The position numbers and the translations under genes are program-made. Shown here piece by piece: positions 7,677 to 61,849 of a stretch of DNA of 64,000 nucleotides (within the stretch, counting starts at the first letter, position 1; every line of letters starts with the position of its first letter). The notes beneath the pieces are model-generated. The model saw only the letters and a list, made by a program, of their open reading frames with translations, was not told where the DNA came from and did no database searches. The DNA is from a virus, in the IMG/VR virus record IMGVR_UViG_3300003322_000872, positions 612-64,611 of that record. The stretch is one strand, 5' to 3'.

Positions 7677-10600
7677 TTATCCTCTAGCCCATTTGTCATT
7701 CTTTATATCTCTCATCCGCTCTGGGAGAACTTCACGAGAGAAATGTCCCATACCTTGCTCTATCTGTTCATTGGTGTTCTTATGGATTTGTTCCAACAGT
7801 TCCTTATCGCGGACACCGTCCACACGAACATGGCTCTCGTAGGTGATATGGATATTGGTATTGCTCGGCGGACGATTGTCGTTGCCGTACGCCGAAATTC
7901 CAAGCCGCCCATTGCGACCTCGCATAAGTGGCATGATCGCTTCCGGCCCACGCTCACCCATAAGACCAATGCCGGATGCCATGGGGAACAAGGTCGGCCG
8001 GTCTACAACACCGCCAGTAGCGAAAGCCGTTACCTGACCATTGCTAAAGGCTGCACCGTTTGCGAACAATCCACCAAAGAGCGATCCAAAGATATTGCCA
8101 ATCCCAGAGCCGATGCTCTTGAACAAATTGCCAAGCGAAGATGTGAGTGTTCCGAGTAGACCTTGGGTTTGCTGTGGGACCTGTGCAGTCGTGGACGCGA
8201 GCGAGGTTGCCGAGCTAGCCACCGAACTCGTCGATGTTGTCAGTGCCTTACTCGTGTCCGTAGCGCTACTGGCAAGTTGACCAATATTGGTGTCGGTCTT
8301 CGCCGAGGTTGTAGACAACTTAGACAAGCTTTGATTAGCAGTCTGTGCTGCCGGAAGAAGATTGGTCTGTTGTCCAGCTGTCTGCGATCCCTGCAAATAC
8401 TGATTGGAATAATTAAGCCGGTTTGTGTACTGGCTCGCCCCCATCGGATTAGTCGCACTGTAGCCGGATGGACGCTCATATCCGAGCATTGCGTTATTGG
8501 CTTCGGTAACGTTCGTTGAGGACCGCAGCCGTGCCCATGACGCACTTTCCGAGGTGGCAAACTCATGATCCATAAAGGCGAGTTGGCCTTGCGGATTGGT
8601 CCGCCAATCTGCACCAACGAACCGTTGCATCGCAGGACCACGATCATTCCATTGAGCTAGACCCAACGCATTACCATTGTCTCCAACAATCCCAGGATTG
8701 AAGCTAGACTCAGCTTTGATATTCCCCATGATCGCGGAGATTTGATAGTTCGGGAGCCCCTGTGCCGCAAAATGCTGCCACACCAATTGCTCATTAGCCG
8801 ACAATCCGGCGGGCATGCCCGCAACAGTCGTTGTAGACAATTGGGAAGCTGTTCCATTTACAAGTTGTCCGGCTACATACTCCGGCCGTACTCCATTAAC
8901 AGCCGCAGCCGCCACTGGGTTATTTACAATTCCATTGTTCGTCAGGGTCGGCCGCACACCATTCGTAACAGCATTAGCCGCCGCCCCCGGCGCGGTCGGG
9001 AACATACCTGGCAATCCCCCGAGTCCTGGTACGGCACCATTAACGAACACAGTACCGGCAGTAACATTCATCGAAGCCGTAGTTTGTGCGCCAGCCAAAG
9101 CCGATAATGGCTTGCCACTAAACAAATCACTTATGGTCGGCAAGTTGGTGCCGAACAAGGCGTTCTTAATTGGATTGGCAATAGCGAGCTGGTTAAAGAA
9201 CTGGAGGAATTGCATCCCCATATTCTTGAGAGTATCCTTCCAGGACGATCCGACTGTTGTCATACCATTAACCAGCGTATCAACCATCGACGAGCCGGTT
9301 TGTTGCCACGACTGCCATGCCGCCTGCATCCGCTCATTCTCGAGCTTTGCCTGTGCAAGGGCTGCTGCATTATTCTTGATCGTTTGTGCATACTGTGAAT
9401 TCAGATCGATGCCCTTTTCGGTCATCGCCTGTTCAGCCTGCAAGATAGCCAAACCACGCGCGCGCTCTTCAGCCGAGGCATGGATAAGTTCACGCTCCCG
9501 AATCAACGTGTCCATCTGTTTGGACTGATCCTGAATCATCGTCTCGGCGGCTGTTATAGACTTAAGCCGCGCCATTTCCTCGCCCAATGCTTTAAGAGCA
9601 GCGGCCTGTTGCGGCGTTAGCGAAATATTCTGCGCCGCCGCCTGGTTAATAAGCTTCATCTGCTCTGCATAGACTGAGGCCTCATAACCAGTCATTTTTA
9701 ACTGCGTAGCAAGTGTCTGCTGTTCACGGATGTTATCCTGGGCCGACTTCACCAACGCTGTCAAAGCATCTGACATCTTTTGGGTATCGTCGGCGGCACC
9801 GGGGGTAGTCCCCGGTATGGTTGTGGTCGGCGTTGCTCCCGGTTTGGAAAGATCGCCTTTGTGGCCGAACATATCACCCAATGGGTCCGACGACATGATG
9901 TCCTTGATCCGCTTTTCGCGCTCATCCATCATGGTCTTGAGCTGTTCGAAATAAGGATTTTCCAAAGGTGGAAGTATATTCTCATCCAGATTTAGACGTT
10001 GTAAATTAACTCCTGGAATGTAGTTTGCAACAGCAATCATCTTGTCGATTGCAAAGCGGAATGCATTGATGAGGCTATTGAGGTTCTCGATGATAATATT
10101 CACCATCCCGATCATGGCTGCACCAATGATCGTGGGGAAATTTTGAACAACAGTCTTTACATCATCGAAAGCCGCTCGGAATGAATTGATGATCGTATTA
10201 CCAACTGTCTTGAGAATATCACCAACGTCGACCCCGATCGCTTTCTTGATCTCGTCCCGGAAATAATAGATCGCGGTAACAGCGAGGACAATACCCTCCA
10301 AGATCGCTGTGAAAGGATTTGACAACGTAAAGGTGATCATCGCGCTTGTGGCAGCGCCGATCGCCGACACGAATCCTTCGCCCATTAGGGTAACTATAGT
10401 CCCTAGCGACGTCGCCATCGCCGGACCGAAAGCGACAAGAAGCGCGGCACCAGCGGCGGTAGCGTATGGCGCGATCTTTTCCAAATTTTCGTTTATTAAC
10501 GAAATCACATTTACGACCTGTGTCGCTATGTCCACCACATTCTGTAACGCGGTAACAAACCCAGTACCGACAATCGTGACGAAACTTTGGAAAGCCGGAT

Positions 10601-11531
10601 TATTGAGCGCTGTGATCAGGCTTTCGATCGACGTGCGCAGGCCTTCGGTTGCACCCTTCCCGAGCTCGAAGAGATTGCCCCATGTGTTGCCGAGCGCATC
10701 CAAAGCCCCGCCGAGCTCTTGGCGCGCGGCTATAGCCGACCCACCAAATTCCCGTTGCAATTCATCAAGGATGACCGCCTGTGCTCGCGCCAATTGGTTG
10801 GAGTTGACAAAGCCGGTGATCATCTGCTTTTGAGTATCGGTGAATTGGATACCAACACGGCTCAGAGCCGAGATGCCTTGGATAGGATCATTGAGTGCCT
10901 TGCCAACCTGTATGGTAGCACCCTGTAGATCACCCCCCATCGCGGTAGCTAGATCAAGGATCGATTTCTGGGCGCGTTCGAACGTTGTCCCTTTAATCGA
11001 GGTGAACGTGAGCAATAGCGCTTGGGACTTTCCGATTGCATCATCCTCAAATGATGTAACAGCCTGCAGAGCAGCTGACATATTGTTCAGCGACTCTAAT
11101 GTTTGCCCCGCCGCCGCGCCTGTGCTTCGGATGACCGCAGCTAATTGGGCCTGGACCTTATTGGCTTCGATCGTATTGGTAACAAATTGCTTCATTGCGA
11201 TAATGGAGCCTAGGAAGGCCCCAAGCGCCGCGATCACCCCGCCCATGATGGCGATGAATCGACCAAATCCAGCTGTCACAATTGACAGATTACTCGCCAT
11301 GGCGTTGAAGCCATTAGACGTTCCATTGATCGAATTGCCAAGGTTCTTGAGATTGTCATTTGCTGCCCTACCAGCATCCCCAGCCTGACCCAGCGCACGC
11401 TTGGCTCGATCAACTTTCTGCTCGGTAGCGACAGCTGCATCACCAATCTCACCGAGAGTCCTTTTAACAACTGCCCCACCGGTCTGAGCTCCGGTGGGGT
11501 CAATACCAATCGCGATACTGCGGTCAACCAT
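7677..11531 (-). CDS. Tape measure protein with an embedded phage-tail lysozyme domain
   Basis: 1284 aa, Ala/Gly-rich helical; GATIQVGKALNDPIQG TMP motif; ISAIMGNIKAESSFNP...GLAQWND lysozyme motif; C-terminal FATGGVV...GERGPEAIMPL. Confidence 0.93.
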   Translation of the reverse strand: MVDRSIAIGIDPTGAQTGGAVVKRTLGEIGDAAVATEQKVDRAKRALGQAGDAGRAANDNLKNLGNSINGTSNGFNAMASNLSIVTAGFGRFIAIMGGVIAALGAFLGSIIAMKQFVTNTIEANKVQAQLAAVIRSTGAAAGQTLESLNNMSAALQAVTSFEDDAIGKSQALLLTFTSIKGTTFERAQKSILDLATAMGGDLQGATIQVGKALNDPIQGISALSRVGIQFTDTQKQMITGFVNSNQLARAQAVILDELQREFGGSAIAARQELGGALDALGNTWGNLFELGKGATEGLRTSIESLITALNNPAFQSFVTIVGTGFVTALQNVVDIATQVVNVISLINENLEKIAPYATAAGAALLVAFGPAMATSLGTIVTLMGEGFVSAIGAATSAMITFTLSNPFTAILEGIVLAVTAIYYFRDEIKKAIGVDVGDILKTVGNTIINSFRAAFDDVKTVVQNFPTIIGAAMIGMVNIIIENLNSLINAFRFAIDKMIAVANYIPGVNLQRLNLDENILPPLENPYFEQLKTMMDEREKRIKDIMSSDPLGDMFGHKGDLSKPGATPTTTIPGTTPGAADDTQKMSDALTALVKSAQDNIREQQTLATQLKMTGYEASVYAEQMKLINQAAAQNISLTPQQAAALKALGEEMARLKSITAAETMIQDQSKQMDTLIRERELIHASAEERARGLAILQAEQAMTEKGIDLNSQYAQTIKNNAAALAQAKLENERMQAAWQSWQQTGSSMVDTLVNGMTTVGSSWKDTLKNMGMQFLQFFNQLAIANPIKNALFGTNLPTISDLFSGKPLSALAGAQTTASMNVTAGTVFVNGAVPGLGGLPGMFPTAPGAAANAVTNGVRPTLTNNGIVNNPVAAAAVNGVRPEYVAGQLVNGTASQLSTTTVAGMPAGLSANEQLVWQHFAAQGLPNYQISAIMGNIKAESSFNPGIVGDNGNALGLAQWNDRGPAMQRFVGADWRTNPQGQLAFMDHEFATSESASWARLRSSTNVTEANNAMLGYERPSGYSATNPMGASQYTNRLNYSNQYLQGSQTAGQQTNLLPAAQTANQSLSKLSTTSAKTDTNIGQLASSATDTSKALTTSTSSVASSATSLASTTAQVPQQTQGLLGTLTSSLGNLFKSIGSGIGNIFGSLFGGLFANGAAFSNGQVTAFATGGVVDRPTLFPMASGIGLMGERGPEAIMPLMRGRNGRLGISAYGNDNRPPSNTNIHITYESHVRVDGVRDKELLEQIHKNTNEQIEQGMGHFSREVLPERMRDIKNDKWARG

Positions 11532-28445: not shown

Positions 28446-28746
28446 CCATTTCAACGGCCTCACACCCAAGGACGCCGAGCTATTAGCCATGCTCTCTGAA
28501 GAAGCGGCCGAGATCATACAGATCAAGGAAAAGATCATGCGGCATGGTTTTGATAGTCATCATCCAGCAAAGAGATACGGTCCAAATAACCGAATAGAGC
28601 TATCAAGGGAAATTGGTGATCTCCTCGGAGTATATGATCGGCTTGTAATGTTGGGGATTATTGATCCGCATGAAGTCGACATATATCGAGCCTCTAAGAT
28701 GGATCGCGCCAAGCCCTATCTACACCATCAAGACGATCCGGGGTAG
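28438..28746 (+). CDS. MazG-like nucleotide pyrophosphohydrolase-fold protein
   Basis: EEAAEIIQ..EK..RHG...REIGDLL acidic helical motif. Confidence 0.65.
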   Translation: MTDHFNGLTPKDAELLAMLSEEAAEIIQIKEKIMRHGFDSHHPAKRYGPNNRIELSREIGDLLGVYDRLVMLGIIDPHEVDIYRASKMDRAKPYLHHQDDPG

Positions 28747-28826
28747 TAGCTCAATGGTAGAGCACTTGCGTGTAGTGGCCACCCTGGACGCAAGGGTTGG
28801 AGGTTCGATTCCTCCCTATTCCACCA
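28740..28826 (+). tRNA. Atypical tRNA-like gene with a 20-nt anticodon loop; G3:U70 and A73 (Ala-type acceptor)
   Basis: Acceptor GGGGTAG/CTATTCC+ACCA; D arm GCTC-AATGGTA-GAGC; stem CTTGC/GCAAG; T arm GGAGG-TTCGATT-CCTCC. Confidence 0.8.
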
Positions 28827-28928
28827 ATAAAGGATCAACTAAATGCGCACCGCCACGCGTCACCTCATGGGCTGGGCAATTGTTATCACAGTTGTCGTAG
28901 CTCTCATCTTTCTATTCGGAGTCTAACC

Positions 28929-29520
28929 ATGCGTCTTACCAACGAACTTCGTACCAAGATCATCCGCTCGCTCATCGTCGATACGATGCAGGCCGAGTAC
29001 AACCGGATATGCAACGACAGCGCCAAATTTGCCGAGGAAGTGTACAATCTCGAAATCCCGGAATTTATCCGCGATTGTAGGGAGCAGGGCTGGTTCCCCA
29101 TAGCCAACAAGATGTACGTCTACAGCCGCGTCGAGCACGACTACCTGCATATGAATGGGGAGTTCATCATCTATCACACGGAGCCAACGCTTAACCGCGA
29201 GCGGATACAATGGCTCAAAGACCCACCGAACGTATCGCGGCAAGTGCCACACAAGCATTACAGCGACTTCCGAGTGTCTTTTAGCGGTGAACTTGCCGAC
29301 CGTTATGAGATTATCCGCGATCGGCGAAGAGTCGAGCAAGGTCAACGAGGCTATCCTCAAGGCCAAAACGATCGTCGAGAACTGCACCACGACCGAGCGA
29401 CTGTTGGATGCATGGCCTGAGATCGAGGCATATATCCCCATCCCCCCGGTCAAATCCCTCCCGATGCTGCCAATCAAGGAAGCGAACGCAATCTTCGGCC
29501 TTCCAAAAGTCGAGGCATGA
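28929..29520 (+). pseudogene. Nmad5-like (nucleotide-modification-associated domain 5) gene interrupted by a +1 frameshift near 29322
   Basis: N-terminal MRLTNELRTKII is in one frame; the family-typical C-terminus (CTTTERLLDAWPEIEAYIP...LP) is in the +1 frame. Confidence 0.65.
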
Positions 29521-49785: not shown

Positions 49786-51801
49786 TCATGCAGCCTTCCG
49801 CATCTCAAAAATCTCGCGGTTGCCCTTGCCTCTGTTACGCCGGACCTCTTCGAAAGATAGGGGTTCGGCTTTTTTGTATTCCTCGATCTCTTGGGATGCC
49901 TGACCCCAATTCCATCCATATTGAAGATCAACCTTCATCGGCACCTTAAGGTGCACGACATCGCGCATTATCTCGGCAAACAACGTACCTGTCTTGGCGT
50001 CCCCGATTGGTGCGCATAGCTCATCGTGCATCTGTAGAGCTGGTAGGATACCTGCGCGATAGCACGCTAGCATGGCTAGTTTTGTCTGCCGCGCGGCGGA
50101 GCCTTGGATAAGCCGGTTCATAGCCTTATGCGTAAATGCGCGCCGTAGTCGCTGCCCTGGCCATTGAACACGGGCCTGCTCTATCGGCATGGGTGGCTTG
50201 TATTCGGACTCCTCATCGCGCCATGCCAGCTCATACATATCGAACCGGCAGCGCGCACCATCCAGCAACCGGATATAGCCACGGTTATTAGCCCGCCGCG
50301 AGCAGAACTCGGCCAGCTTCTTAACGAACGGCATACGGATATGATACTGGGCAACGATCTCCTTAGCCTCATCGATCGGAATACCCAGCGACACAGCCAA
50401 CTTAAACAGGCCCATGCCGTACATCAGGCCGAGGTTGATGATCTTGGCCTTCTTACGCTCAATCCCGGTAAGCTCGGCCACCATCGTATGGAAGTCAGCA
50501 TCGGGATTGTTCATGTAGTAATCAACCGCCGCCGTAGACCCCTCCAATTCACACAGGGCGGAGAAGTGAACAGCGAGGCGTGGCTCTTGCTGGCTATAGT
50601 CGCCCGAAGCCCAAAGTGTGTCGAGCTCCGGAAGGAATATCCCCCGGACCAGCGGCGATAGAACCGGATCGCGCCCAGGCATTTGCTGCAACGGGGGATT
50701 GCTGTAGCTAAATCGGAACGATCGAGTGCCACCATCATCGTCCCTAAGCTGATGCACTTCGGCGTGAATGCGACCAAAATGCGTGGAGCCTAGCAGGTAG
50801 CCTCCAATGAACTTTTCAGACATGTTGTTGTATTCACGAGCCGATGCCACCAATCGCGGTAGCCAGTGCTCATGCTTTTCCATCCAGTCCGACTGGAAGC
50901 TACCCTTCTGGGTCTTCGGTGTCTTGGTGTACGGCACCTGCTCTTGCTGGAATGCGCGTTCGAGCGATCCGGGCGAGTTCGCATGCTCCATCGTAAACTG
51001 GCCCCATCCAAGGTTACGGGCCAGCTCATTTAATATCTCATCGCGTTTGGCACGTAGCTGCGCCATGGTGCCGTCAGCCGCGTTTTCATCGATCGGGATG
51101 CCCCGCTTACGCATAGCGAGGACCATGGGGACCAGATCGCATTCCAACCGGTATGCGGCTGTTAAATCCTGCGCATGGATTTCCCCGAGCATGTCTTCCG
51201 CCGCAAGTAGCGTGGAGACCGCGTCTTGTTCGGCATATCCACCGACATGACGAGCCGGGAGTTTGTACATTTCAGCTTTTGGATCGATGCCAAAAGCCGC
51301 CGCTGCTTCGCGAAGAGCATCCTCATCCTTACCGGGGACACCACGCCAACGGCAGATAGCATCCAAGGAATAGGACAATCGATTTTCATCGAGTAATACC
51401 GCCATTGCATGTGTGTCATCTGCCTTGTCGGATGGTATTTGGACGTCTTCGGTTGATAAGCCGCCTTCGTCGTACGAGCGATTTTGAAAGTATACCCGTT
51501 TAGCATTATCGAGGACAGACTGGAGCCAACGGAAGGCTTCGTCGGACGGAAAATTACGGGAGTCAGGATGTCGGACAGGAATGTATGTTGATTTGACTTC
51601 ATTGTTAACCTTCCATGCCAGCGAAAAACCGGCGACATAAAAGTCTTCGTCATTAAATACCCAGCCCGGACCCCTCTTCTTTAGCAGGACGTCCTTGGTT
51701 TCAGTATCCAACGCCACGGGTATCCCACGCGGGATCGTGGGATAATCCTTGGGTTCCTGCCACTTTGTTTCCGGTTCAAATAGGATAAGTTGATCAGACA
51801 A
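49786..51801 (-). CDS. polA: Family A DNA polymerase with 3'-5' exonuclease (Leu762 type)
   Basis: ALDTETK exo I; motif A SGDYSQQEPRL; motif B RKKAKIINLGLMYG; motif C QMHDEL. Confidence 0.95.
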   Translation of the reverse strand: MSDQLILFEPETKWQEPKDYPTIPRGIPVALDTETKDVLLKKRGPGWVFNDEDFYVAGFSLAWKVNNEVKSTYIPVRHPDSRNFPSDEAFRWLQSVLDNAKRVYFQNRSYDEGGLSTEDVQIPSDKADDTHAMAVLLDENRLSYSLDAICRWRGVPGKDEDALREAAAAFGIDPKAEMYKLPARHVGGYAEQDAVSTLLAAEDMLGEIHAQDLTAAYRLECDLVPMVLAMRKRGIPIDENAADGTMAQLRAKRDEILNELARNLGWGQFTMEHANSPGSLERAFQQEQVPYTKTPKTQKGSFQSDWMEKHEHWLPRLVASAREYNNMSEKFIGGYLLGSTHFGRIHAEVHQLRDDDGGTRSFRFSYSNPPLQQMPGRDPVLSPLVRGIFLPELDTLWASGDYSQQEPRLAVHFSALCELEGSTAAVDYYMNNPDADFHTMVAELTGIERKKAKIINLGLMYGMGLFKLAVSLGIPIDEAKEIVAQYHIRMPFVKKLAEFCSRRANNRGYIRLLDGARCRFDMYELAWRDEESEYKPPMPIEQARVQWPGQRLRRAFTHKAMNRLIQGSAARQTKLAMLACYRAGILPALQMHDELCAPIGDAKTGTLFAEIMRDVVHLKVPMKVDLQYGWNWGQASQEIEEYKKAEPLSFEEVRRNRGKGNREIFEMRKAA

Positions 51802-52528
51802 TTTCCATTTCCCCGGCTTCTATAGCAGCAGGAGTCCCGTAAGAATGCATAGGTGTCCAGCCACTATAGCCATCCAGCCGTTCTGGTAAAAGATTGAGCG
51901 CGCCGGAAAGATAGAACTCGCCGTTGGTATGGCGAATATCGGAGCGTATCTGTTCGGCGATGGCTTTGTGGATCGATCCTGCACGATTAAACCGCCAGAA
52001 ACCAGATTGTGCCCAGCTGCCAATACGGTTCTTCTCGGCCACCTCTAAAACTCTATTAACGTCGTCTTTATCCAGACGAACATAGCTATAGATCGGATCA
52101 CCTTGTGGGTGATGATGGACCATGGTAAGGTTGGCATTAGTCGACAAGAACTTAGCCACGGTGTTCGGATGAAACTCCACGTCGCAGTCTGTAATCGCCA
52201 CCGGCTTAGCCGCATTAAGCCCCAACAACCCTCGCAGGACAGTGTGCGATTGACCTTCAGTTTCCCCGGCGATCGATAAAATCTCAACCCGGCCGAGGTC
52301 TTCTTTGAAAATATCAGCAAACCGGTGGTAAAGTTCCTGGGGAACGATGATCCGAATTTGCCAGTCCAACGGAATAGACCATGCAATCCGCTTGATAATT
52401 GGAGCCGAGCTATCCCGCCCGCGCTCCCTTACGTTGATAAGAGCCTTATGTTCTTGATAGCCAGCAGCCTTAAACCGTTCCGACCGACCCATCGCCGGAA
52501 TGATTACCGTACCAGAATAGCTGTCCAT
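51794..52528 (-). CDS. Sugar-phosphate nucleotidyltransferase (NTP_transferase, GT-A fold)
   Basis: IIPAMGRSERF..AGY..HK.LI, GQSHT, DCD, YSYV...VAEK.RI, EFYLS, GTP. Confidence 0.85.
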   Translation of the reverse strand: MDSYSGTVIIPAMGRSERFKAAGYQEHKALINVRERGRDSSAPIIKRIAWSIPLDWQIRIIVPQELYHRFADIFKEDLGRVEILSIAGETEGQSHTVLRGLLGLNAAKPVAITDCDVEFHPNTVAKFLSTNANLTMVHHHPQGDPIYSYVRLDKDDVNRVLEVAEKNRIGSWAQSGFWRFNRAGSIHKAIAEQIRSDIRHTNGEFYLSGALNLLPERLDGYSGWTPMHSYGTPAAIEAGEMEIV

Positions 52529-52971
52529 TTTGTATCTTCCCTTACTCGCTGGATTGTTCTAAGGCTGTCATCAAAATAACAGCCTGGTTCTTCTTGGCCG
52601 TTAAGCCAGTCGATTTTATCTTGGAGTGTTTTACCCCAACGGATATCGGCCGAACCTAACACAGGAAAAGTGTCACGAACAGCATTAACAGTGGCTTCCG
52701 ACGCTGATGTTAGAATCGTCCCACCATTGTTTATCCAGAGCTGCATAACTGGTCCTGGCTTACCTAGCATGCGAATATAATGAGCTGTTATCCAACCTTT
52801 ACGCTGATGGACAGATTCATCGGTCCATTCGCTCCAATGTCGCTCATAGAAATCCTTTGGAGGCTTTACACCGAGAGACTCATAAGCCCACTCGTTAGCG
52901 GCCTTTGTATCAACGATGGTCCCATCCAAGTCCCAAACGAGCTTCATTTTCCAGCCCCAGTACCTTTCCAA
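52504..52971 (-). CDS. HAD-superfamily phosphatase
   Basis: WDLDGT motif I; ILTSAS motif II; K; YFDDS motif IV. Confidence 0.85.
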   Translation of the reverse strand: MERYWGWKMKLVWDLDGTIVDTKAANEWAYESLGVKPPKDFYERHWSEWTDESVHQRKGWITAHYIRMLGKPGPVMQLWINNGGTILTSASEATVNAVRDTFPVLGSADIRWGKTLQDKIDWLNGQEEPGCYFDDSLRTIQRVREDTKWTAILVR

Positions 52972-53656
52972 TCTCGATAGCGACTAACGACGCCCATTTA
53001 CCGAGCGCTGTTACACGGTTATTGTAAGTAGACTCCCGGTATACGATCCGAATAAAATGCATCATACACCAGAACATAGTCCGCCGCAGGGTATTCTCGT
53101 TCATCCCATGGAAGGGATTAAACTGCACATACCCATTGTACAGGAAATCCTCCTTATGTTCATTGGGCGATCCCGCCATGTAGTAGAGCGCTTGCTCCCA
53201 TCCAAGAAACGACTGCATTACCTTCCCTCGGTCCACCGAGGGGTACGGGGGGATGCCGTTTCCGGCTGGCCAAGGATCGATAAAGCGCATGAGTCGCCCA
53301 TTCCAGCGCATGTTGGCTAGTGTCGGGTCGCCGTGGGTAAGGCATGGCTCTTCGTCGATCCACTGCGGCACATTAAAGCTAAATCGTTGCAGAAACCGTT
53401 TGCGCCATTCTCGATGATCGAAAGGGTAGGGATTTGACCGCACCCAGACATGATCTTCGAGGGTCTCCATGCCACGGCACAACAGATCGTGCTCCACCCT
53501 TAAGGGCAGATACTCCATGACGATGAAGCCCTGATCCGAGTTGAATTCGCATCGACCCGTGTGGTAGACATTGGGCGCGATCGACCCCAACAGCTTATTG
53601 TGGGCAACCTCAGTCTCGATCTCCTGATATGGGCCTTCCTTGAGCATCACGGGCAT
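52910..53656 (-). CDS. APH/choline-kinase-like small-molecule phosphotransferase (ORF extends to 53884)
   Basis: IVMEYLP hinge; Brenner-type HGDPTLAN; RFIDP. Confidence 0.78.
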   Translation of the reverse strand: MPVMLKEGPYQEIETEVAHNKLLGSIAPNVYHTGRCEFNSDQGFIVMEYLPLRVEHDLLCRGMETLEDHVWVRSNPYPFDHREWRKRFLQRFSFNVPQWIDEEPCLTHGDPTLANMRWNGRLMRFIDPWPAGNGIPPYPSVDRGKVMQSFLGWEQALYYMAGSPNEHKEDFLYNGYVQFNPFHGMNENTLRRTMFWCMMHFIRIVYRESTYNNRVTALGKWASLVAIEIGKVLGLENEARLGLGWDHR

Positions 53657-54512
53657 CACGGTCGACTTTGACCGGCCGAGGATGTCCGCTGGAGATGAGT
53701 GCTTTCTGCCAGTAGACAACGACTTCTTTACGGGGATGTCCTTTATAAGCTCGATCGACGACGCGCACAAGGCCGGGATGGAGTCTTGCAAGTTTTTCTG
53801 CGTCAGCATCGCTGCTCTCCGTTGTGCGCTCGTCGCTAGCCCCGCCGGGGGCGGCATAGGATTTTTGGCCGACGGCGAAATCATTGGTAAGGACGTTCGG
53901 ATGGCCGCGCTTTAAGAGCTGGAGCGCGACATCCATATCTTCGCGGGTATCGATGCGATCGAACTCTGCGTCTGCCATCACAGTAGGAACATGATAGGCC
54001 AGCGCAAGCATCATCCGATTGCCGCCGGTAAGCCATCCGCCATGGCACTTGTCGTTGCCCTGTCGAGGGCCGAAGCCACCATGCGGAACCTCCGGAGTGA
54101 TCCGCTCCATGAGCTCGTTGATCCAGAAGTTGGTGTGATCGGGATCGGAGTCCAGAAGCCGCCAGTCACCCTTTACCTCCTTGTGCTTCCAGAACCGCGA
54201 CGTCTCCGACCAATAACGATAATAGAAGAACAAATCATCGTCGAGCATCAAGATTTTTTCGAAGCCGTTATCGACTGCGTACCGCATCATCCAAGCACGC
54301 TTGGCAGCAATCCGCATGTTGTCATCTGGTTGAGGAACAACCCAGAGATTACTGTAACCGCGATCGTTAGCCAGCCGGACAAGGTGATCAGCTTCCGATC
54401 TCGGACAAAACATGAACGTCCTGGTCCGCAGCTCCGGCGACAGCGACATAAGCGTCTGCTGGTTTAGCACTCGCCCGCGCGTTGGGATAAAAATTTTGAA
54501 GTTGTCCATCAT
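53610..54512 (-). CDS. GREB1/TAGT-like (base-J glucosyltransferase-related) GT-A glycosyltransferase
   Basis: IFIPTRGR, KRAW, LMLDDDL, REDMD..LQ.L..G, APGG, HPG.V, WQKA. Confidence 0.8.
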   Translation of the reverse strand: MMDNFKIFIPTRGRVLNQQTLMSLSPELRTRTFMFCPRSEADHLVRLANDRGYSNLWVVPQPDDNMRIAAKRAWMMRYAVDNGFEKILMLDDDLFFYYRYWSETSRFWKHKEVKGDWRLLDSDPDHTNFWINELMERITPEVPHGGFGPRQGNDKCHGGWLTGGNRMMLALAYHVPTVMADAEFDRIDTREDMDVALQLLKRGHPNVLTNDFAVGQKSYAAPGGASDERTTESSDADAEKLARLHPGLVRVVDRAYKGHPRKEVVVYWQKALISSGHPRPVKVDRDARDAQGRPISGDRD

Positions 54513-55348
54513 CAGTCCTTCGGCTTGAAGCGGGTGCCGGATGTTTCGCCCGAAGCATACCGACAATATTTGTCCCACTCACACAAGTTATGTTCGATTT
54601 CGAACATGGTCATCTGCGGGCCTAAGCGATCCCTCGCTTTGGCCAACAGATCATTAAGAGTAACCTGTAAATTCGGCGGAATTTCGATACCGACCGTTAC
54701 AGCGTTATCCCGACGTTCCTGGTTGGTCATAGGCTTGTAATTGCCCGCCATACGGGACAGTCCGCGTAGCGCGCCGGGGCCGATATAGGCCCACGACAAT
54801 TCGTCCTCGTACGGTCCCCATAGCCAACGCAGGTCTTGCATCGTTTGATAAGCGACGAATGGGCCGAGGCCTTGTTTCTTGAGAAGCAGAACCATTTCCT
54901 TGGCCGACGATCGCTTTGTTGGCTCCCAATCGATAATTCGCATTGTGAACCCGAAAAGCTTCTCAATCAAGGTCGCTACACCCGGACGATTGTAAAGTCC
55001 CCCCGGCACCATGATCCGATATGCATTAGAGAACAATGGTTTGGTATCCTCAAGGATTTTGAGAACATCCTTCTCGTTGAACCACTCTCCCTCTACAACC
55101 GCCTTTAACGAAGTGGTGCGGTTGAGTAGGCGAAAAAACAAAGCGGCATGAAGCTGTTTCAGACCATTTCCGCCAAGACCTAGAATATAATTCTTGGCCT
55201 CGACAGATGTCCTGTCATCATCGCGAATGACCGAACAGAACTTGTAGGTGTTGATCACCTGATCATCCGACCATGGCCGGGGGGAGCCTTCCTTCCGGCG
55301 GTCAGTCGCGGCCTGTCGCCGCACCATGTATTCTACAATGTCGATCAT
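54512..55348 (-). CDS. aGPT-Pplase / amino acid:DNA transferase-like protein (paralogue 2)
   Basis: PWSDDQVINTYKFCSV.RDDDRT...FRLLN...GPF.AYQ...DL...GPGALRGL...EH.LCEWDKY. Confidence 0.85.
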   Translation of the reverse strand: MIDIVEYMVRRQAATDRRKEGSPRPWSDDQVINTYKFCSVIRDDDRTSVEAKNYILGLGGNGLKQLHAALFFRLLNRTTSLKAVVEGEWFNEKDVLKILEDTKPLFSNAYRIMVPGGLYNRPGVATLIEKLFGFTMRIIDWEPTKRSSAKEMVLLLKKQGLGPFVAYQTMQDLRWLWGPYEDELSWAYIGPGALRGLSRMAGNYKPMTNQERRDNAVTVGIEIPPNLQVTLNDLLAKARDRLGPQMTMFEIEHNLCEWDKYCRYASGETSGTRFKPKD

Positions 55349-55863
55349 GCTCGATTTCCATCACCGCCAAGGATATTGGCTTCCGGCGGCTCGCTCCACT
55401 TCTTCATGAACTCTGGCATATCCGACTCCGGTGCTGGCTCTTCAAGGTTAATTGCCTCGACGATTGCTTTGTCCAAATCCTGATCCCGCTTGGACTCGGC
55501 GATCTTGGCAAACCGAACCACTGCCTCCCGCCGCGATATATTCCAGGCCACTGCCAAGGCGGCGAAGACATCCTTGGTGATGTCGAGAGGATAGACCGGC
55601 TCGGTACAACGATCGGATGCCAATGTGGCATATCCGGCGATATCGTTCCAGTGGTCGGGCTCATTCGGATTGCCGGCGAGAATACGCGACAACTTGTGGA
55701 CGATCATATAGCAGGCATGGCGCTTGGTGTCGTCCAAGATCGGCCAGTTCGATTGGCCCATCAGGATACGCATCATATCCCATGTCGCCGCCGAGTTCTC
55801 GCTGTATTCACCATGCGTACCGGCGCGCGTATTGATCAGTTCTTGTGGGGTTACAGTTCCCAT
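55345..55863 (-). CDS. DUF6378-family protein
   Basis: RAGTHGEY...HKLSRI..GNP...DHW.DIAGYA. Confidence 0.8.
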   Translation of the reverse strand: MGTVTPQELINTRAGTHGEYSENSAATWDMMRILMGQSNWPILDDTKRHACYMIVHKLSRILAGNPNEPDHWNDIAGYATLASDRCTEPVYPLDITKDVFAALAVAWNISRREAVVRFAKIAESKRDQDLDKAIVEAINLEEPAPESDMPEFMKKWSEPPEANILGGDGNRA

Positions 55864-56435
55864 AATGCGATCCTCTTCTTTACATATTGCGATGCTCGTG
55901 CGGCAATCGCTACTTTGAATTGCTCCTCATCGGTCGGGGTTATTTTGGTCCCCACTAACCAACATTGTTCAAGTCGCTCCTCTACCACCTTCCGGCAGCG
56001 GAGAGCGACAAGCCGGGCAAATACGTTGCCCAGCAATTTCTCTTCCTCGCCCCATTCCCACATCTCGATGAATTCGGCGAGCTTAACAGCCCATTTTTCG
56101 TCGGCTGTTACGTCGGGGCCAAGATGCAGGAAGCCCTGCATCCATTGCTCTTGAAGTGACTCCTCCTCCACCCGGTTCATGCCGCCCGCGATATCCGGGT
56201 TATTAGCCTTTACAGGATAGGGTGCGTCGCCGGTCTTAATCTCGCCGCAGTCGTGGCGCACAACGTATGCCATCACATGCGCCGGAACGTCCGGCCAAAT
56301 GCAGAGTAGGATGCGAAGGAGCTGCCAGCTGTGCTCGGCGACAGACTGCTCCTTGATATGTGGCCATGTGTGGTAACGAGAAACCCGTCCGGCCAAGCGG
56401 GCATCATCACGGACTTGTGGAACAATATCGGTCAT
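55851..56435 (-). CDS. HD-domain (YfbR/DatZ-like) deoxynucleotide phosphohydrolase
   Basis: RYHT...QSVAEHS...HD.GE..TGD.P.P.K. Confidence 0.85.
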   Translation of the reverse strand: MTDIVPQVRDDARLAGRVSRYHTWPHIKEQSVAEHSWQLLRILLCIWPDVPAHVMAYVVRHDCGEIKTGDAPYPVKANNPDIAGGMNRVEEESLQEQWMQGFLHLGPDVTADEKWAVKLAEFIEMWEWGEEEKLLGNVFARLVALRCRKVVEERLEQCWLVGTKITPTDEEQFKVAIAARASQYVKKRIALWEL

Positions 56436-56800
56436 TTGACCTCCTCATAGGTCGCCGCGAAAATATCAGGCTTGCACGGATAATGCTCACCCTTCATTCC
56501 GGTGATGATCCAGTCGCCGGGGCAGACAATATGTCCGCCCTCCAGCGTGTCGATCCAGCCGTGATAATGCATTCGAATCCCGCAATATTTACAGGCCCAC
56601 TCACAATCGACTGCAGGGGAGCGATAATATCGAACAATCTCGCCCTCCCAGCCAAGAACCTTGGCTTCAGCACCCGATATTGTGGTGGGTTGATCATCTT
56701 CGATGGCAGGACGATCGTTGGCATAATCGAGTGGGTGGTCGCCGTTCTTAAACCACTGGGTGGCCTCGATCTCAACAGGCTTCTTGCGATATTTGGTCAT
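56432..56800 (-). CDS. Conserved phage protein (KKPVEIEA...GDWII..GE.YPCKPDIF family)
   Basis: Family-typical N- and C-terminal motifs. Confidence 0.8.
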   Translation of the reverse strand: MTKYRKKPVEIEATQWFKNGDHPLDYANDRPAIEDDQPTTISGAEAKVLGWEGEIVRYYRSPAVDCEWACKYCGIRMHYHGWIDTLEGGHIVCPGDWIITGMKGEHYPCKPDIFAATYEEVK

Positions 56801-57930
56801 TTCATCCTCACATCGTCAAAGCGACGAAGCTCCTTGTTCATGCGGCGCGTTATCCACTGGGACGCTGCGATCTTCCAATCAGTCCATTCGCCCTCCTTCA
56901 GCATGGAGAGCGCCTTGCGGTGGTCTTCGCGCCATGCATCGTGCAAGTGTAGCATTGGCTTGGCGATATCATGGAACCAGCCTGAATAGGCCGTTTCCTT
57001 GCCCTCGATGAATTCCTCGCACTGAACGATAAAGTCTTTCGCCGCATCCCGCACTCGCTTGCGGCCGTCGACAGACTTGTAATAATAGTCAGAGTCCATA
57101 CCAAGCAGCGATCGGGGCTGTGCCATTCCATATGTGTACGGGTCCATTGTATCAACCGGCGGCCACACCTGATCGAGGACGTTGAGATAGACGTGGAAAT
57201 TGTTGGAGACTTGATAATATTTACCAAGTCGCATCCCGGCGAGCCCCGCCACTACTTCGGCCATAACCGACATGTGGACAGCATTAGCCCCGTATGTCCC
57301 CCATACTACATCATTCGACCGGCACGACACCGTAGTGTCTAGTTCCCACACAGAGTCCATAGCATTCCATCGACCCCGGAACATAACAAGGTCATTACAG
57401 GGGATATCCTTCTTCTTGGCCCCAAGGTCTATCGCCGGGTCCCACATAGCCATGACCGCTTGGCGCGACAAGGGATCGTTGAAGAGGATTTCACCGCACA
57501 ACGAAATCTGGTCGACCGGGGGGAATTCCCACATTGCGATCTCGTTGCCTTGAGAGTCAGACGTGCTTTCGCCGACACGAACAGCCTCCCCCCGGAAATG
57601 CTTCCGCCAACGATAGCCATATGCACCGTGGGCTTCACCATTGTCCTCGGCGAACCGCGAGGAGAAGTCCTTGACGAACCGATCGAGGTAGGTGGCATCG
57701 CGCCGCCCCGCCAGCATCCAGATCGACTCGAACAAATGAAAGAACGGATTGGCATCCCGATTCGGCTCGAACAATACCCGCTCGTTCGGCCGATAGTAAA
57801 CAGTTGTAACCGGCTCGGACGAAACCAATACATCCCCTGCTCTTGAGGAGCTACGCGATCCACTATGGATGAGGTGCTCCATACCTGCTTTGTATGCGTC
57901 GTTCACATTCCGAGCTTTGATTACATGCAT
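56797..57930 (-). CDS. Thymidylate-synthase homologue, probable dUMP hydroxymethyltransferase
   Basis: ANPFFHLFE..WMLAG, GAYGYRW, catalytic DIPCN, RSNDVVWGTYGAN (Asn implies dUMP specificity), NNFHVY. Confidence 0.88.
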   Translation of the reverse strand: MHVIKARNVNDAYKAGMEHLIHSGSRSSSRAGDVLVSSEPVTTVYYRPNERVLFEPNRDANPFFHLFESIWMLAGRRDATYLDRFVKDFSSRFAEDNGEAHGAYGYRWRKHFRGEAVRVGESTSDSQGNEIAMWEFPPVDQISLCGEILFNDPLSRQAVMAMWDPAIDLGAKKKDIPCNDLVMFRGRWNAMDSVWELDTTVSCRSNDVVWGTYGANAVHMSVMAEVVAGLAGMRLGKYYQVSNNFHVYLNVLDQVWPPVDTMDPYTYGMAQPRSLLGMDSDYYYKSVDGRKRVRDAAKDFIVQCEEFIEGKETAYSGWFHDIAKPMLHLHDAWREDHRKALSMLKEGEWTDWKIAASQWITRRMNKELRRFDDVRMK

Positions 57931-58554: not shown

Positions 58555-58967
58555 TCTGTCGCCCTGTAATACAACTCCTCCATCAAAATCTCGGCTGCAG
58601 CCTGATTATATTTGTTGTCGTAGAACGACGTGTATTTACCAGGTGCGGGTATCATCCCGATCGGGCCACGCAAACACAGCTTGGGGAACGTATCCAAACC
58701 AGTCGCGCGGCGACAACCCTCCCCTACAAGAACGAGGATATCACATTCATGTAATATCTCGCCCTCGATTTCTTGCCAACGATCGACAGCCTCTACCGGC
58801 TGCCAAGCGCCATAAAATAGGCATTTGCGCTTGAACACGCGTAAATAATCCTCCTCGCTAACATCTACCCTCTCCCGCAACAGCGAAAGAAGGTCTATAT
58901 CTATCGGAGTAAGGGCCTCACCCTCCTCCGGTGCGATATCTCCGAGGATCATCACTCGTTCAACCAT
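58551..58967 (-). CDS. Hypothetical protein, possibly UDG-like fold
   Basis: VMILGDIAP...ILVLVGE...IPAPG...Y pattern loosely resembles UDG-superfamily motifs. Confidence 0.4.
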   Translation of the reverse strand: MVERVMILGDIAPEEGEALTPIDIDLLSLLRERVDVSEEDYLRVFKRKCLFYGAWQPVEAVDRWQEIEGEILHECDILVLVGEGCRRATGLDTFPKLCLRGPIGMIPAPGKYTSFYDNKYNQAAAEILMEELYYRATE

Positions 58968-59478
58968 GGCCGACGCCGCTCTTAGCGGCTACCGGGCCGC
59001 GCTCTTGATTTTGATACTTTCCAGTATCGGGATAAGCCTGTTCGGTCGGCTCGTCCAGACGATGGAAGATTACTTGAGCGATCGGGGTGCCGGCGACCAG
59101 TTTTGTCCTCGTGTACTCGGTTCCGGGCCAAAACTTTTCCCACATCTGCCGATTAACTGGGATATTGCATGATATCTCCAGTGTAAGAAATCCGGACCAC
59201 CCAGGCTCTGCCACTGTATTCTGTACTGCGATCCCGCGCCGCGCCCATGTAGACTTGTCGTGGATGATCCCAACCACATCTGTCGGCATGTGGAAGCGTT
59301 CCATCGTCGAGGCCAGTGTAAAGCCGCCCGGTTCGATGACGATATCCTGATCCAGCCGCAGATCATATCCACAGGCCGATAGGCCAAAACTGCAGCCAGA
59401 CTCCGGATGTTGCTGGCGCTCAACCATGGGATCGAGCAGCTTAAGGCGACGGATAGTTTGTGCAGAAAGAATGGTCAT
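58960..59478 (-). CDS. dcd: dCTP deaminase
   Basis: GLSACGYDLRL, DKSTWARRG, AEPGWSGFLTLE, IAQVIF, KYQNQ. Confidence 0.9.
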   Translation of the reverse strand: MTILSAQTIRRLKLLDPMVERQQHPESGCSFGLSACGYDLRLDQDIVIEPGGFTLASTMERFHMPTDVVGIIHDKSTWARRGIAVQNTVAEPGWSGFLTLEISCNIPVNRQMWEKFWPGTEYTRTKLVAGTPIAQVIFHRLDEPTEQAYPDTGKYQNQERGPVAAKSGVGHG

Positions 59479-60395
59479 TTGAACCTCTGTCTCGGGGCAC
59501 CTTCCCCGGTTTTCACCCGCATATATTTATCGAGTTCGCAAAGCGAATGCTCGATATCCCGCATTTCCAGGGACGGCCACTCAGCGGGCCAGAGCTCACG
59601 ATCTTCGGACAAGAATAACAGCTGCCGCATTTCCTCGATAAATTTGGCCTTGGGTTGCTTGAACTTAAGATCGCGGCCGAGTAGCCGGTTAAGACCACGC
59701 ATCGCGCCGGGGCCAGGATTGGCCCACGTCATGATGTCGGGAGCCTTGTTAAGCAGAGGCGTATGGCGGAGATCGGTTACGATCTCATAGGCCATGAAGT
59801 CACCGAGGTAGGGAAACTGACGGAGCCAATACCATACATCTTCAAGCTTCATATTGTCTTCAATAAGCATACGAACAGTGGCCCCCTTCCAATCATATGC
59901 TTCGCTCATGGGAAAATGCCTATAGAACGTATAAAATTGCTCAACGCACCACAGTACACCATCCAACTTAGATTTCCCATCCGGGGTCTTGATAATATAC
60001 GACCCTGTCACATACGGACCCTTACCGCAGTAACTGACAAGAGCCGATCGGATCGCGCCGGTATTCCCCCCGGACCCGACAAATTCGTCCCACGCGGTGG
60101 CACCGGGGGGAGACGTGTCCATGCGAGTTTGATCAAAGATGGCTTCTCCGGCTGCGATCCGGTTAAACCAGCGAAAGAGGACAGTGGCAAGCAATACATT
60201 ATCCACTGGCACTCTTTTGCGGACATGTTCGCGCAGCCAGATCGTGGTGCGATCTAACTCACGGAACACATTACAGAAGCGATATTCCTGGAAAATCGGA
60301 TCGTTGGTCCATTGCCCGCGCGGCAACCCGGCCTGCCGATTTAGATAAATCTGGTGGCGAGCGCGCATGTAGTCAAAGAGGGGCGAGGCGTCCAT
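59475..60395 (-). CDS. aGPT-Pplase / amino acid:DNA transferase-like protein (paralogue 1)
   Basis: ATG 60395 with SD AGGAG; RHQIY..R..G.P...WT.DPI...YRFCNVFRELDRTT...FRWFN...TG.YII...G.FMAYEIVTDL...GPGA.RGL...EH.LCE.DKY. Confidence 0.9.
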   Translation of the reverse strand: MDASPLFDYMRARHQIYLNRQAGLPRGQWTNDPIFQEYRFCNVFRELDRTTIWLREHVRKRVPVDNVLLATVLFRWFNRIAAGEAIFDQTRMDTSPPGATAWDEFVGSGGNTGAIRSALVSYCGKGPYVTGSYIIKTPDGKSKLDGVLWCVEQFYTFYRHFPMSEAYDWKGATVRMLIEDNMKLEDVWYWLRQFPYLGDFMAYEIVTDLRHTPLLNKAPDIMTWANPGPGAMRGLNRLLGRDLKFKQPKAKFIEEMRQLLFLSEDRELWPAEWPSLEMRDIEHSLCELDKYMRVKTGEGAPRQRFK

Positions 60396-60437
60396 CGGTG
60401 ATCTCCTGTTTAGATCGTTTATGCCGTATGAGGTCAT

Positions 60438-61774: not shown

Positions 61775-61849
61775 TGGTATCCTATGAGGGAATCGAACCC
61801 TCCCACTGGGTTTTAGAGGCCCTGCTTCAACCACCGAAGCTCATAGGAC
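61775..61849 (-). tRNA. tRNA with CUA anticodon (amber-suppressor type)
   Basis: Acceptor GTCCTAT/ATAGGAT+ACCA; D arm GCTTC..GAAGC; loop CT-CTA-AA on a weak stem (3 G-C pairs); T arm GAGGG-TTCGATT-CCCTC. Confidence 0.8.

Follow-up and report, generated by a model that had tools for sequence, protein, structure and literature searches.

Glycosylated hydroxymethylcytosine and hydroxycytosine are established anti-restriction bases of phages, and the known hypermodifications of 5-hydroxymethyluracil (hmU) carry amines or amino acids. We analyzed a 64,000-nt stretch (hereafter the window; bases 612–64611) of the IMG/VR virus record IMGVR_UViG_3300003322_000872, which is 77,484 bp long and rated complete by CheckV. 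The window contains four contiguous genes that encode a GT-A glycosyltransferase (GT) of the TAGT family, an APH-like kinase, a phosphatase of the HAD superfamily and a nucleotidyltransferase (NT). These genes probably constitute a DNA-glycosylation unit inside a pre-replicative hmU pathway, and the cassette is a variant of the known phage DNA-glycosylation systems, built from parts of known kinds.

In the phages RB69, DLP3 and HY126, AfhE/AfhF (kinase and NT, HAD phosphatase) make UDP-arabinose for the phage DNA (PMC13326640). As predicted for the window, a phage-encoded APH-fold kinase, an NT and a HAD phosphatase thereby make a nucleoside diphosphate (NDP)-sugar for a DNA glycosyltransferase, and in both systems the genes adjoin a thymidylate-synthase homologue. 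However, the two systems differ in several respects. The NT and the kinase are fused in AfhE/AfhF, whereas the window has three separate genes, and the transferase of those phages is of the GT-B type rather than a GT-A enzyme of the TAGT family. Their base is 5-hydroxycytosine, made by a D169N 5-hydroxy-dCMP synthase, whereas the base predicted here is hmU and the ThyA homologue is of the Asn type with Asp169 kept. Those phages also encode an arabinose-5-phosphate isomerase, and none was found among the scanned open reading frames (ORFs) of our virus. A tblastn search with the NT and the kinase returned no match in RB69-type phages, and the likeness to RB69 ORF052c is structural only.

Glycosylated hmU produced by a GT-A enzyme, the product predicted here, is found in the base J of kinetoplastids (JBP1/2 and the base-J glucosyltransferase, JGT). 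In that system, hmU arises from a dioxygenase and about 1% of T is modified, whereas the window encodes a predicted pre-replicative dUMP hydroxymethylase, the replacement is probably genome-wide and the sugar donor is apparently self-made. Models of TAGT and phage GT-A enzymes structurally match the JGT of T. cruzi (Pyle et al.), and the sequence identity between phage GT-A enzymes and JGT is about 9% in a published comparison. The glycosyltransferases of the TET/5mYOX-associated phage pathways belong to the same TAGT GT-A family (Burke 2021; Pyle 2023/2024), but the characterized pathways act on 5-hydroxymethylcytosine made from 5-methylcytosine and not on hmU. Pyle et al. also counted contigs with ThyS-linked GT-A genes, listed APH phosphotransferases among their recurrent neighbors and surveyed ThyS-linked hmU variants without product determination, and O'Toole et al. 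reported phage T-dioxygenases linked with glycosyltransferases.

The locus further resembles the hypermodification clusters of M6, ViI, PhiW-14, SP10 and PaMx11 (PMC8989533): it has a predicted dUMP hydroxymethylase, an aGPT-Pplase of clade 1 and, outside the cluster, a gene similar to Nmad5, and it shares with the M6/ViI-type clusters a neighborhood of family-A polymerase and ribonucleotide reductase genes. In contrast to these clusters, no P-loop 5-HMUDK, clade-2 amino-acid:DNA transferase, or PLP, radical-SAM or FAD tailoring enzyme was found here, and a glycosyltransferase with a donor module stands in their place. The phages PhiJL001 and LuckyBarnes share with the window the core trio Pplase1-TAGT-ThyA in the same neighborhood, but they lack the kinase, HAD and NT genes, and the window TAGT—32% identical to the GT of PhiJL001—falls in a separate clade. 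The MupP/AmgK/MurU and NahK/GlmU salvage routes, which serve cell-wall recycling in bacteria, follow the same logic as the proposed pathway: a sugar-1-phosphate uridylyltransferase works with a HAD phosphatase and an anomeric sugar kinase of the APH fold. No relationship to these bacterial routes was detected at the level of sequence.

The initial annotation had described four contiguous, translationally coupled genes on the minus strand at 51794–54512, and our reading of the overlapping junctions confirmed this arrangement (Table 1). The Pplase and GT genes share the sequence TGATG at their junction, and the following genes overlap by 38 nt (kinase/HAD), 25 nt (HAD/NT) and 8 nt (NT/polA). The placement of the four genes between an aGPT-Pplase gene and polA also held, although that annotation had not remarked on the clade-1 (PF18723) nature of the Pplase. 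The order of the four genes is not a product of chance: the same arrangement is seen in 16 or more distinct viral loci, with 23–55% identity. Compared with phage sequences by megablast, the 6.6-kb region yielded zero matches.

The glycosyltransferase matched the Pfam TAGT profile PF20691 well above the cut-off (77.6 bits against 27.5; 1.6e-21; profile positions 1–205), with 78.2 bits to the same profile in a six-frame search and a match to phrog_842 at 8e-42. Its metal-binding DDD (DXD) motif (D91, D92 and D93) was invariant across seven aligned homologues, and its C-terminus was conserved up to the stop codon at 53610. The profile score and the intact motif support the earlier description of this protein as a TAGT-like GT-A enzyme. 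No other glycosyltransferase was found in the window besides this single TAGT by Pfam, six-frame and large-ORF scans.

The kinase is more divergent from the profiles of its family. It scored 16.7–17.6 bits against Pfam APH (PF01636), which is below the gathering score of 23.2, and 24 of 64 members of the kinase family matched this profile at E ≤ 0.01. A library of 1.84 billion proteins contained 338 homologues. In the 64-row alignment, the catalytic loop HGDPTxxN and the downstream Asp were invariant, with H108, G109, D110, N115 and D127 invariant or nearly so. The AlphaFold2 model built from this alignment reached a mean confidence (pLDDT) of 93.3, whereas the model built from the single sequence was unusable (pLDDT 35). 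Foldseek matched the former model to FN3K, APH(3')-Ia and choline kinase with a probability of 1.0 and TM-scores of 0.4–0.57. The nearest solved and Swiss-Prot folds were fructosamine/ketosamine kinases, APH(3'), choline kinase, CcrZ and hydroxylysine kinase, all of which are small-molecule kinases. The modeled structure thus shows that the predicted fold of the kinase is a small-molecule APH/FN3K fold, and with the intact catalytic loop it upholds the APH-like assignment. Among viral models, RB69 ORF052c—the kinase part of an AfhE-type protein—was the third match (E 1.2e-4; TM-score 0.53), and several of the viral structural matches were nucleotidyltransferase-kinase fusion proteins. In the ESM Atlas, one cluster of 688-aa viral proteins has HAD and NTP_transf_3 domains in addition to the same kinase fold.

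Sequence searches with the kinase alone were less informative: tblastn against phages and phmmer against the PDB each gave zero matches, the single sequence used as query for related loci found none and the protein homologue search gave only four. The kinase gene reported in the initial annotation is present, but the start that it implied probably lies too far downstream. Homologues extend further at the N-terminus, by about 45–60 residues that form a helix and a GxSGA loop, and this extension aligns with the window frame ahead of the Met that the gene caller had selected; in the closest relative (L005), the frame is open as well and a Met stands at the same place. The start codon, judged from this conserved N-terminus, is likely the ATG at 53809, which is preceded by GGAG. 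With this start, positions 53610–53809 of the minus strand form about 200 nt of out-of-frame dual coding, in which the 66 codons at the 3' end of the TAGT gene, which are conserved, overlap the conserved helix and glycine-rich loop of the kinase. This overlap is common to L005, and the two genes abut without overlap in L006–L009.

The HAD protein matched Pfam and NCBIfam profiles weakly and below their cut-offs, and its single sequence gave chance-level matches only against the PDB. Nevertheless, all four motifs of the superfamily (I–IV: DLDGT, T/S-AS, Lys and YFDDS) were kept across seven homologues, which agrees with a HAD phosphatase gene as first described, and its profile leaned weakly to beta-phosphoglucomutase and sugar-phosphate phosphatases. 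The NT, with weak Pfam matches, was matched as a single sequence to the NDP-sugar pyrophosphorylase 4evw of the PDB (phmmer; 6e-8). The profile of its family (12 members) extended these matches to 4evw (1.2e-18), the dual sugar-1-phosphate nucleotidylyltransferase ST0452 of Sulfolobus (3e-10), GlmU (1.6e-8) and RmlA (8e-8); ManC-type enzymes were matched as well, and IspD, KdsB and LicC were not among the top matches. These matches to solved enzymes identify the NT as a sugar-1-phosphate nucleotidylyltransferase, in line with the nucleotidyltransferase gene named earlier. The N-terminal signature residues A12, G14, R18, F19 and K28 were invariant, phrog_3980 was matched at 5e-21, and tblastn matched NDP-sugar pyrophosphorylase/HAD genes of cyanophages.

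IMG/VR was scanned twice, with the kinase alignment and with the TAGT alignment, and the roughly 100 loci obtained were annotated with profiles built from the window proteins. Loci with identical TAGT sequences were removed, and 62 loci kept both TAGT and ThyA; the TAGT gene is linked in these loci to a ThyA-type hydroxymethylase and not to TET/JBP. Kinase homologues occurred in the same gene order in related assemblies. The kinase and NT genes were located between TAGT and ThyA in 16 of the 62 loci, six of which also contained the HAD gene, and 45 loci had neither kinase nor NT, 44 of them with the arrangement Pplase-TAGT-ThyA. A single locus (L042; IMGVR_UViG_3300049479_000313) presented the NT only, in the order TAGT-NT-Pplase-ThyA. 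The kinase was never found without the NT (0/62), and in the HAD-free loci the two genes directly overlapped, with the sole exception of L039. The Pplase family was present in 58 of these 62 loci, with or without the kinase, and the kinase-free form (ThyA, TAGT and Pplase1) is also that of two cultured phages, PhiJL001 and LuckyBarnes. Judging from these sequence patterns, the kinase, HAD and NT genes read as one optional donor-supply module that is tied to the GT and not to the Pplase. The sugar-1-phosphate type of the NT, the small-molecule fold predicted for the kinase, the viral kinase-NT(-HAD) fusions and the precedent of AfhE/AfhF all agree with this reading.

We then inferred a maximum-likelihood tree from 78 TAGTs. 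In it, the 19 TAGTs adjacent to a kinase, without exception, group with that of the NT-only locus in one clade (support 98/81) that includes the window TAGT. The existence of a separate kinase-linked clade hints at a changed specificity, although kinship among the phages may contribute to the clustering. Nine of the 16 kinase-bearing loci have a second, highly divergent TAGT, placed between the kinase-linked one and the Pplase, and more than one TAGT was present in only 3 of 46 kinase-free loci. These second TAGTs form a separate, long-branched group in the tree (the loci concerned include L015, L016, L018, L019, L022, L024–L026 and L029–L031), and their occurrence where the donor module is present suggests di-glycosyl products. 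A distant relative (L033) carries between its TAGT and kinase genes a 222-aa ORF (9342–10010, plus strand) with a weak N-terminal match to Sulfotransfer_3, and this sulfotransferase-like sequence may point to variants with a sulfated sugar. A pair of kinase and HAD genes of this family was also found at 9803–11183 (plus strand) of a 103-kb viral contig (L027) with no TAGT or ThyA nearby; its neighbors had no Pfam match except for an ORF similar to C5 DNA methylases.

The surrounding genes are consistent with the hmU cluster that had been proposed around the four genes, with a ThyA of the dUMP hydroxymethylase type, an HD hydrolase—which comes after ThyA in most loci—and a dCTP-deaminase-like gene. 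Aligned to solved ThyA structures, the thymidylate-synthase homologue has the catalytic Cys, an Asp at the position of E. coli D169 and an Asn at N177, and its motifs PCN, RSND and GAN were invariant in ten relatives. Its sequence identity is 44% to the Yuavirus (M6-type) enzyme and 40% to PhiJL001 gp24, which is annotated as similar to the dUMP hydroxymethylase of SPO1. N177D marks dCMP enzymes and D169N marks 5-hydroxy-dCMP synthases (PMC13326640). A dCMP hydroxymethylase or a 5-hydroxy-dCMP synthase is therefore ruled out as the base-forming enzyme, both equivalents (Asp169 and Asn177) being kept, and the retained Asn indicates uracil specificity. By these residues, the homologue is predicted to be a hydroxymethylase of the dUMP-specific type. 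The search for a TET/JBP route gave no match, which is a weak negative, as the control genomes likewise gave none.

Both Pplase copies matched PF18723 only, which corresponds to clade 1 (M6 gp55 type) and not to the amino-acid:DNA transferase clade; neither copy belongs to clade 2, and neither matched a solved structure by sequence (phmmer against the PDB). The copy beside the dCTP deaminase gene is the conserved one, 47% identical to PhiJL001 gp19 and 35–43% to proteins of the M6/Yua gp55 type (aGPT-Pplase1), whereas the GT-adjacent copy is absent from the otherwise syntenic close relatives L010 and L011. In Yua-like phages, the aGPT-Pplase1 gene adjoins a P-loop kinase gene. The characterized members of clade 2 require 5-phosphomethyl-dU, and the reconstituted pathway needed only a clade-2 protein and the kinase, with the clade-1 protein M6 gp55 being dispensable (PMC8989533). 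Clade 1 is, by this result, an uncharacterized clade.

Taken together, these genes suggest the following route. A dCTP-deaminase-like enzyme would supply dUMP, which the M6/Yua-type hydroxymethylase would turn into hmdUMP, while the HD hydrolase would deplete competing nucleotides and the phage polymerase would build hmU-containing DNA. Acting on a host sugar phosphate, the HAD enzyme would strip the phosphate from a non-anomeric position, the APH-fold kinase would phosphorylate the anomeric carbon of the sugar and the NT would convert the sugar-1-phosphate to an NDP-sugar. The metal-dependent TAGT would then move the sugar onto the hydroxymethyl group of hmU in the polymer, and the product would be a base-J-like 5-(glycosyloxymethyl)uracil. 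The acceptor would thus be hmU in DNA rather than another DNA-borne group, and the sugar may be one other than glucose. The enzyme families, the linkage of kinase and NT and the likeness to AfhE/AfhF all favor the earlier proposal that the phage makes its own NDP-sugar for glycosylation.

Several observations weigh against a DNA-glycosylation unit of this kind. The Pfam scores of the kinase, HAD and NT all lie under the curated cut-offs, the locus proportions are biased because the survey was seeded partly via the kinase, and the phage is an uncultured IMG/VR record known from its genes alone. No isomerase (including SIS), epimerase or dehydratase was found among the scanned ORFs, and without such a tailoring enzyme there is no sign of an unusual sugar, so that the module could do no more than raise the supply of a common donor. 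The genome shows no further kinase, although it has two genes of the Pplase family and the characterized members of the Pplase superfamily need phosphorylated hmU (PMC8989533). Finally, the acceptor of a TAGT is not set by its family, since the beta-glucosyl-HMC alpha-glucosyltransferase of T6 is a member that adds a sugar onto a sugar.

The absence of sugar-tailoring enzymes would fit a module that only boosts or replaces an ordinary host donor—UDP-glucose or UDP-N-acetylglucosamine (UDP-GlcNAc)—in which case the product would be plain base J or GlcNAc-hmU. The NT profile indeed resembles nucleotidylyltransferases of Glc-1-P and GlcNAc-1-P, and the loci that lack the kinase and the NT presumably draw on host donors. 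We nevertheless consider this explanation unlikely, while giving it some weight: the kinase-linked TAGTs form a separate clade, which suggests an altered donor or acceptor, and a salvage route of phosphatase, anomeric kinase and NT would be unneeded for UDP-glucose in most hosts. It is also conceivable, but improbable, that the APH-fold kinase is a non-orthologous replacement of the P-loop 5-hmdU DNA kinase, with the Pplases substituting the phosphate and the NT and HAD serving some other step. The 77-kb genome gives no sign of a P-loop kinase, with Walker A motifs seen only in the terminase and the UvrD helicase, and such a replacement would give a role to the two Pplase-family genes of the cluster, given the substrate that characterized clade-2 members require. 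However, the Pplases of the window belong to clade 1, whose representative M6 gp55 was not needed in the reconstituted pathway, and 44 of the 45 kinase-free loci, as well as PhiJL001 and LuckyBarnes, still carry Pplase1, TAGT and ThyA. In addition, the kinase is always accompanied by the NT in the 62 loci, other viruses have it in fusions with NT or HAD, the folds closest to it are those of small-molecule kinases and its family has an acidic to neutral pI (the median isoelectric points, pI, are about 6.0 for the kinase and NT families, 7.7 for TAGT and 7.1–8.8 for the Pplase families).

Another explanation, to which we attach little probability, is that the TAGT acts on a group pre-installed on hmU by the clade-1 Pplase, or that it extends another sugar. 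The sugar-on-sugar enzyme of T6, the nearly constant adjacency of the Pplase and the second divergent TAGT in 9 of the 16 kinase-bearing loci would be compatible with this explanation. On the other hand, only one TAGT and no further glycosyltransferase were found in the window, no kinase that could install a leaving group for Pplase chemistry was found either, and comparable phage GT-A enzymes in published work attach the sugar to the hydroxymethyl base itself. Most metagenomic GT-A matches fall outside base-modification clusters, as would be expected if the NDP-sugar and the GT served an acceptor other than DNA, for example a virion protein or a component of the host envelope. This appears extremely unlikely for our locus, because the TAGT gene lies between the Pplase1 and ThyA/polA genes, in the replication module, in 62 loci and because the TAGT family is defined by its association with DNA modification.

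The four genes belong to a single minus-strand run of overlapping genes at 49.8–60.4 kb. In Pfam and PHROG scans, the order of transcription begins with a PF18723 gene, followed by genes for a dCTP-deaminase-like enzyme, a Pyr_excise-like protein, the thymidylate-synthase homologue, the HD/YfbR-like hydrolase, DUF6378 and the second PF18723 protein; the GT, kinase, HAD and NT genes come next, and then polA, an RNase T-like exonuclease and ribonucleotide reductase. A domain scan of the other large ORFs revealed no kinase or sugar-enzyme domain.

Table 1. Coordinates of the glycosylation cassette and of neighboring genes in the window
Predicted product	Positions	Strand	Length	Remarks
Family A DNA polymerase (polA)	49786..51801	-		PF00476 at 2.5e-44; downstream neighbor of NT
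Sugar-1-phosphate nucleotidylyltransferase (NT; NDP-sugar pyrophosphorylase)	51794..52528	-	244 aa	
Small HAD-superfamily phosphatase (or phosphomutase)	52504..52947	-	147 aa	
APH/fructosamine-kinase-fold small-molecule kinase	52910..53809	-	about 299 aa	Gene-caller short form starts at 53647
TAGT-family GT-A glycosyltransferase, predicted DNA-acting	53610..54512	-	300 aa	PF20691; phrog_842
Clade-1 aGPT-Pplase paralogue, GT-adjacent copy	54512..55348	-		PF18723 at 9e-33
DUF6378 protein	55345..55863	-		phrog_474, labelled 'phosphofructokinase' in PHROGs; between HD hydrolase and Pplase
HD-domain (YfbR-like) deoxynucleotide hydrolase	55851..56435	-		PF12917, PF13023; phrog_7076, dATP-triphosphohydrolase-like
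Thymidylate-synthase homologue, dUMP hydroxymethylase type	56797..57930	-		phrog_5131 at 1.5e-89
dCTP deaminase/dUTPase-like enzyme	58960..59478	-		PF22769 at 5.9e-18; TIGR02274 at 6e-26
Clade-1 aGPT-Pplase paralogue, conserved copy	59475..60437	-		PF18723 at 1.8e-47

Several other features of the window and its relatives were recorded. The DUF6378 protein recurs in L006, L008 and L010. A weak match to Nmad5 (18.5 bits, under the cut-off) was found at 28797–29420 on the plus strand; Nmad5 genes are located near the Pplase1 gene in Yua-like phages and also at the ends of L006 and L007. ARAGORN predicted a tRNA-His at 28740–28826 and, at 61775–61849 on the minus strand, a tRNA of the amber-suppressor type with a CTA anticodon, labelled tRNA-Pyl.

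In the literature that we searched, we found no phage for which a glycosyl-hmU had been identified chemically. As published surveys already anticipate the concept, the value of this locus lies in a well-defined, testable cassette and not in surprise. We tentatively propose—as a possibility short of being probable—that a widespread group of uncultured phages replaces T by glycosyl-hmU with a phage-encoded, salvage-type donor route, and that in this group a TAGT subclade has co-evolved with the route, a second TAGT or sulfation extends the modification in some members and the clade-1 Pplase works with glycosylation rather than with a DNA kinase. The loci with and without the donor module offer a clean genetic setting for learning the role of the clade-1 aGPT-Pplase. 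If our interpretation is correct, the cassette would also provide new pairs of DNA glycosyltransferases and donors for the labelling of hmU. A sugar on hmU with a self-supplied donor would then represent a new class of natural DNA bases in phages, and it would be the first base-J-like DNA outside eukaryotes.

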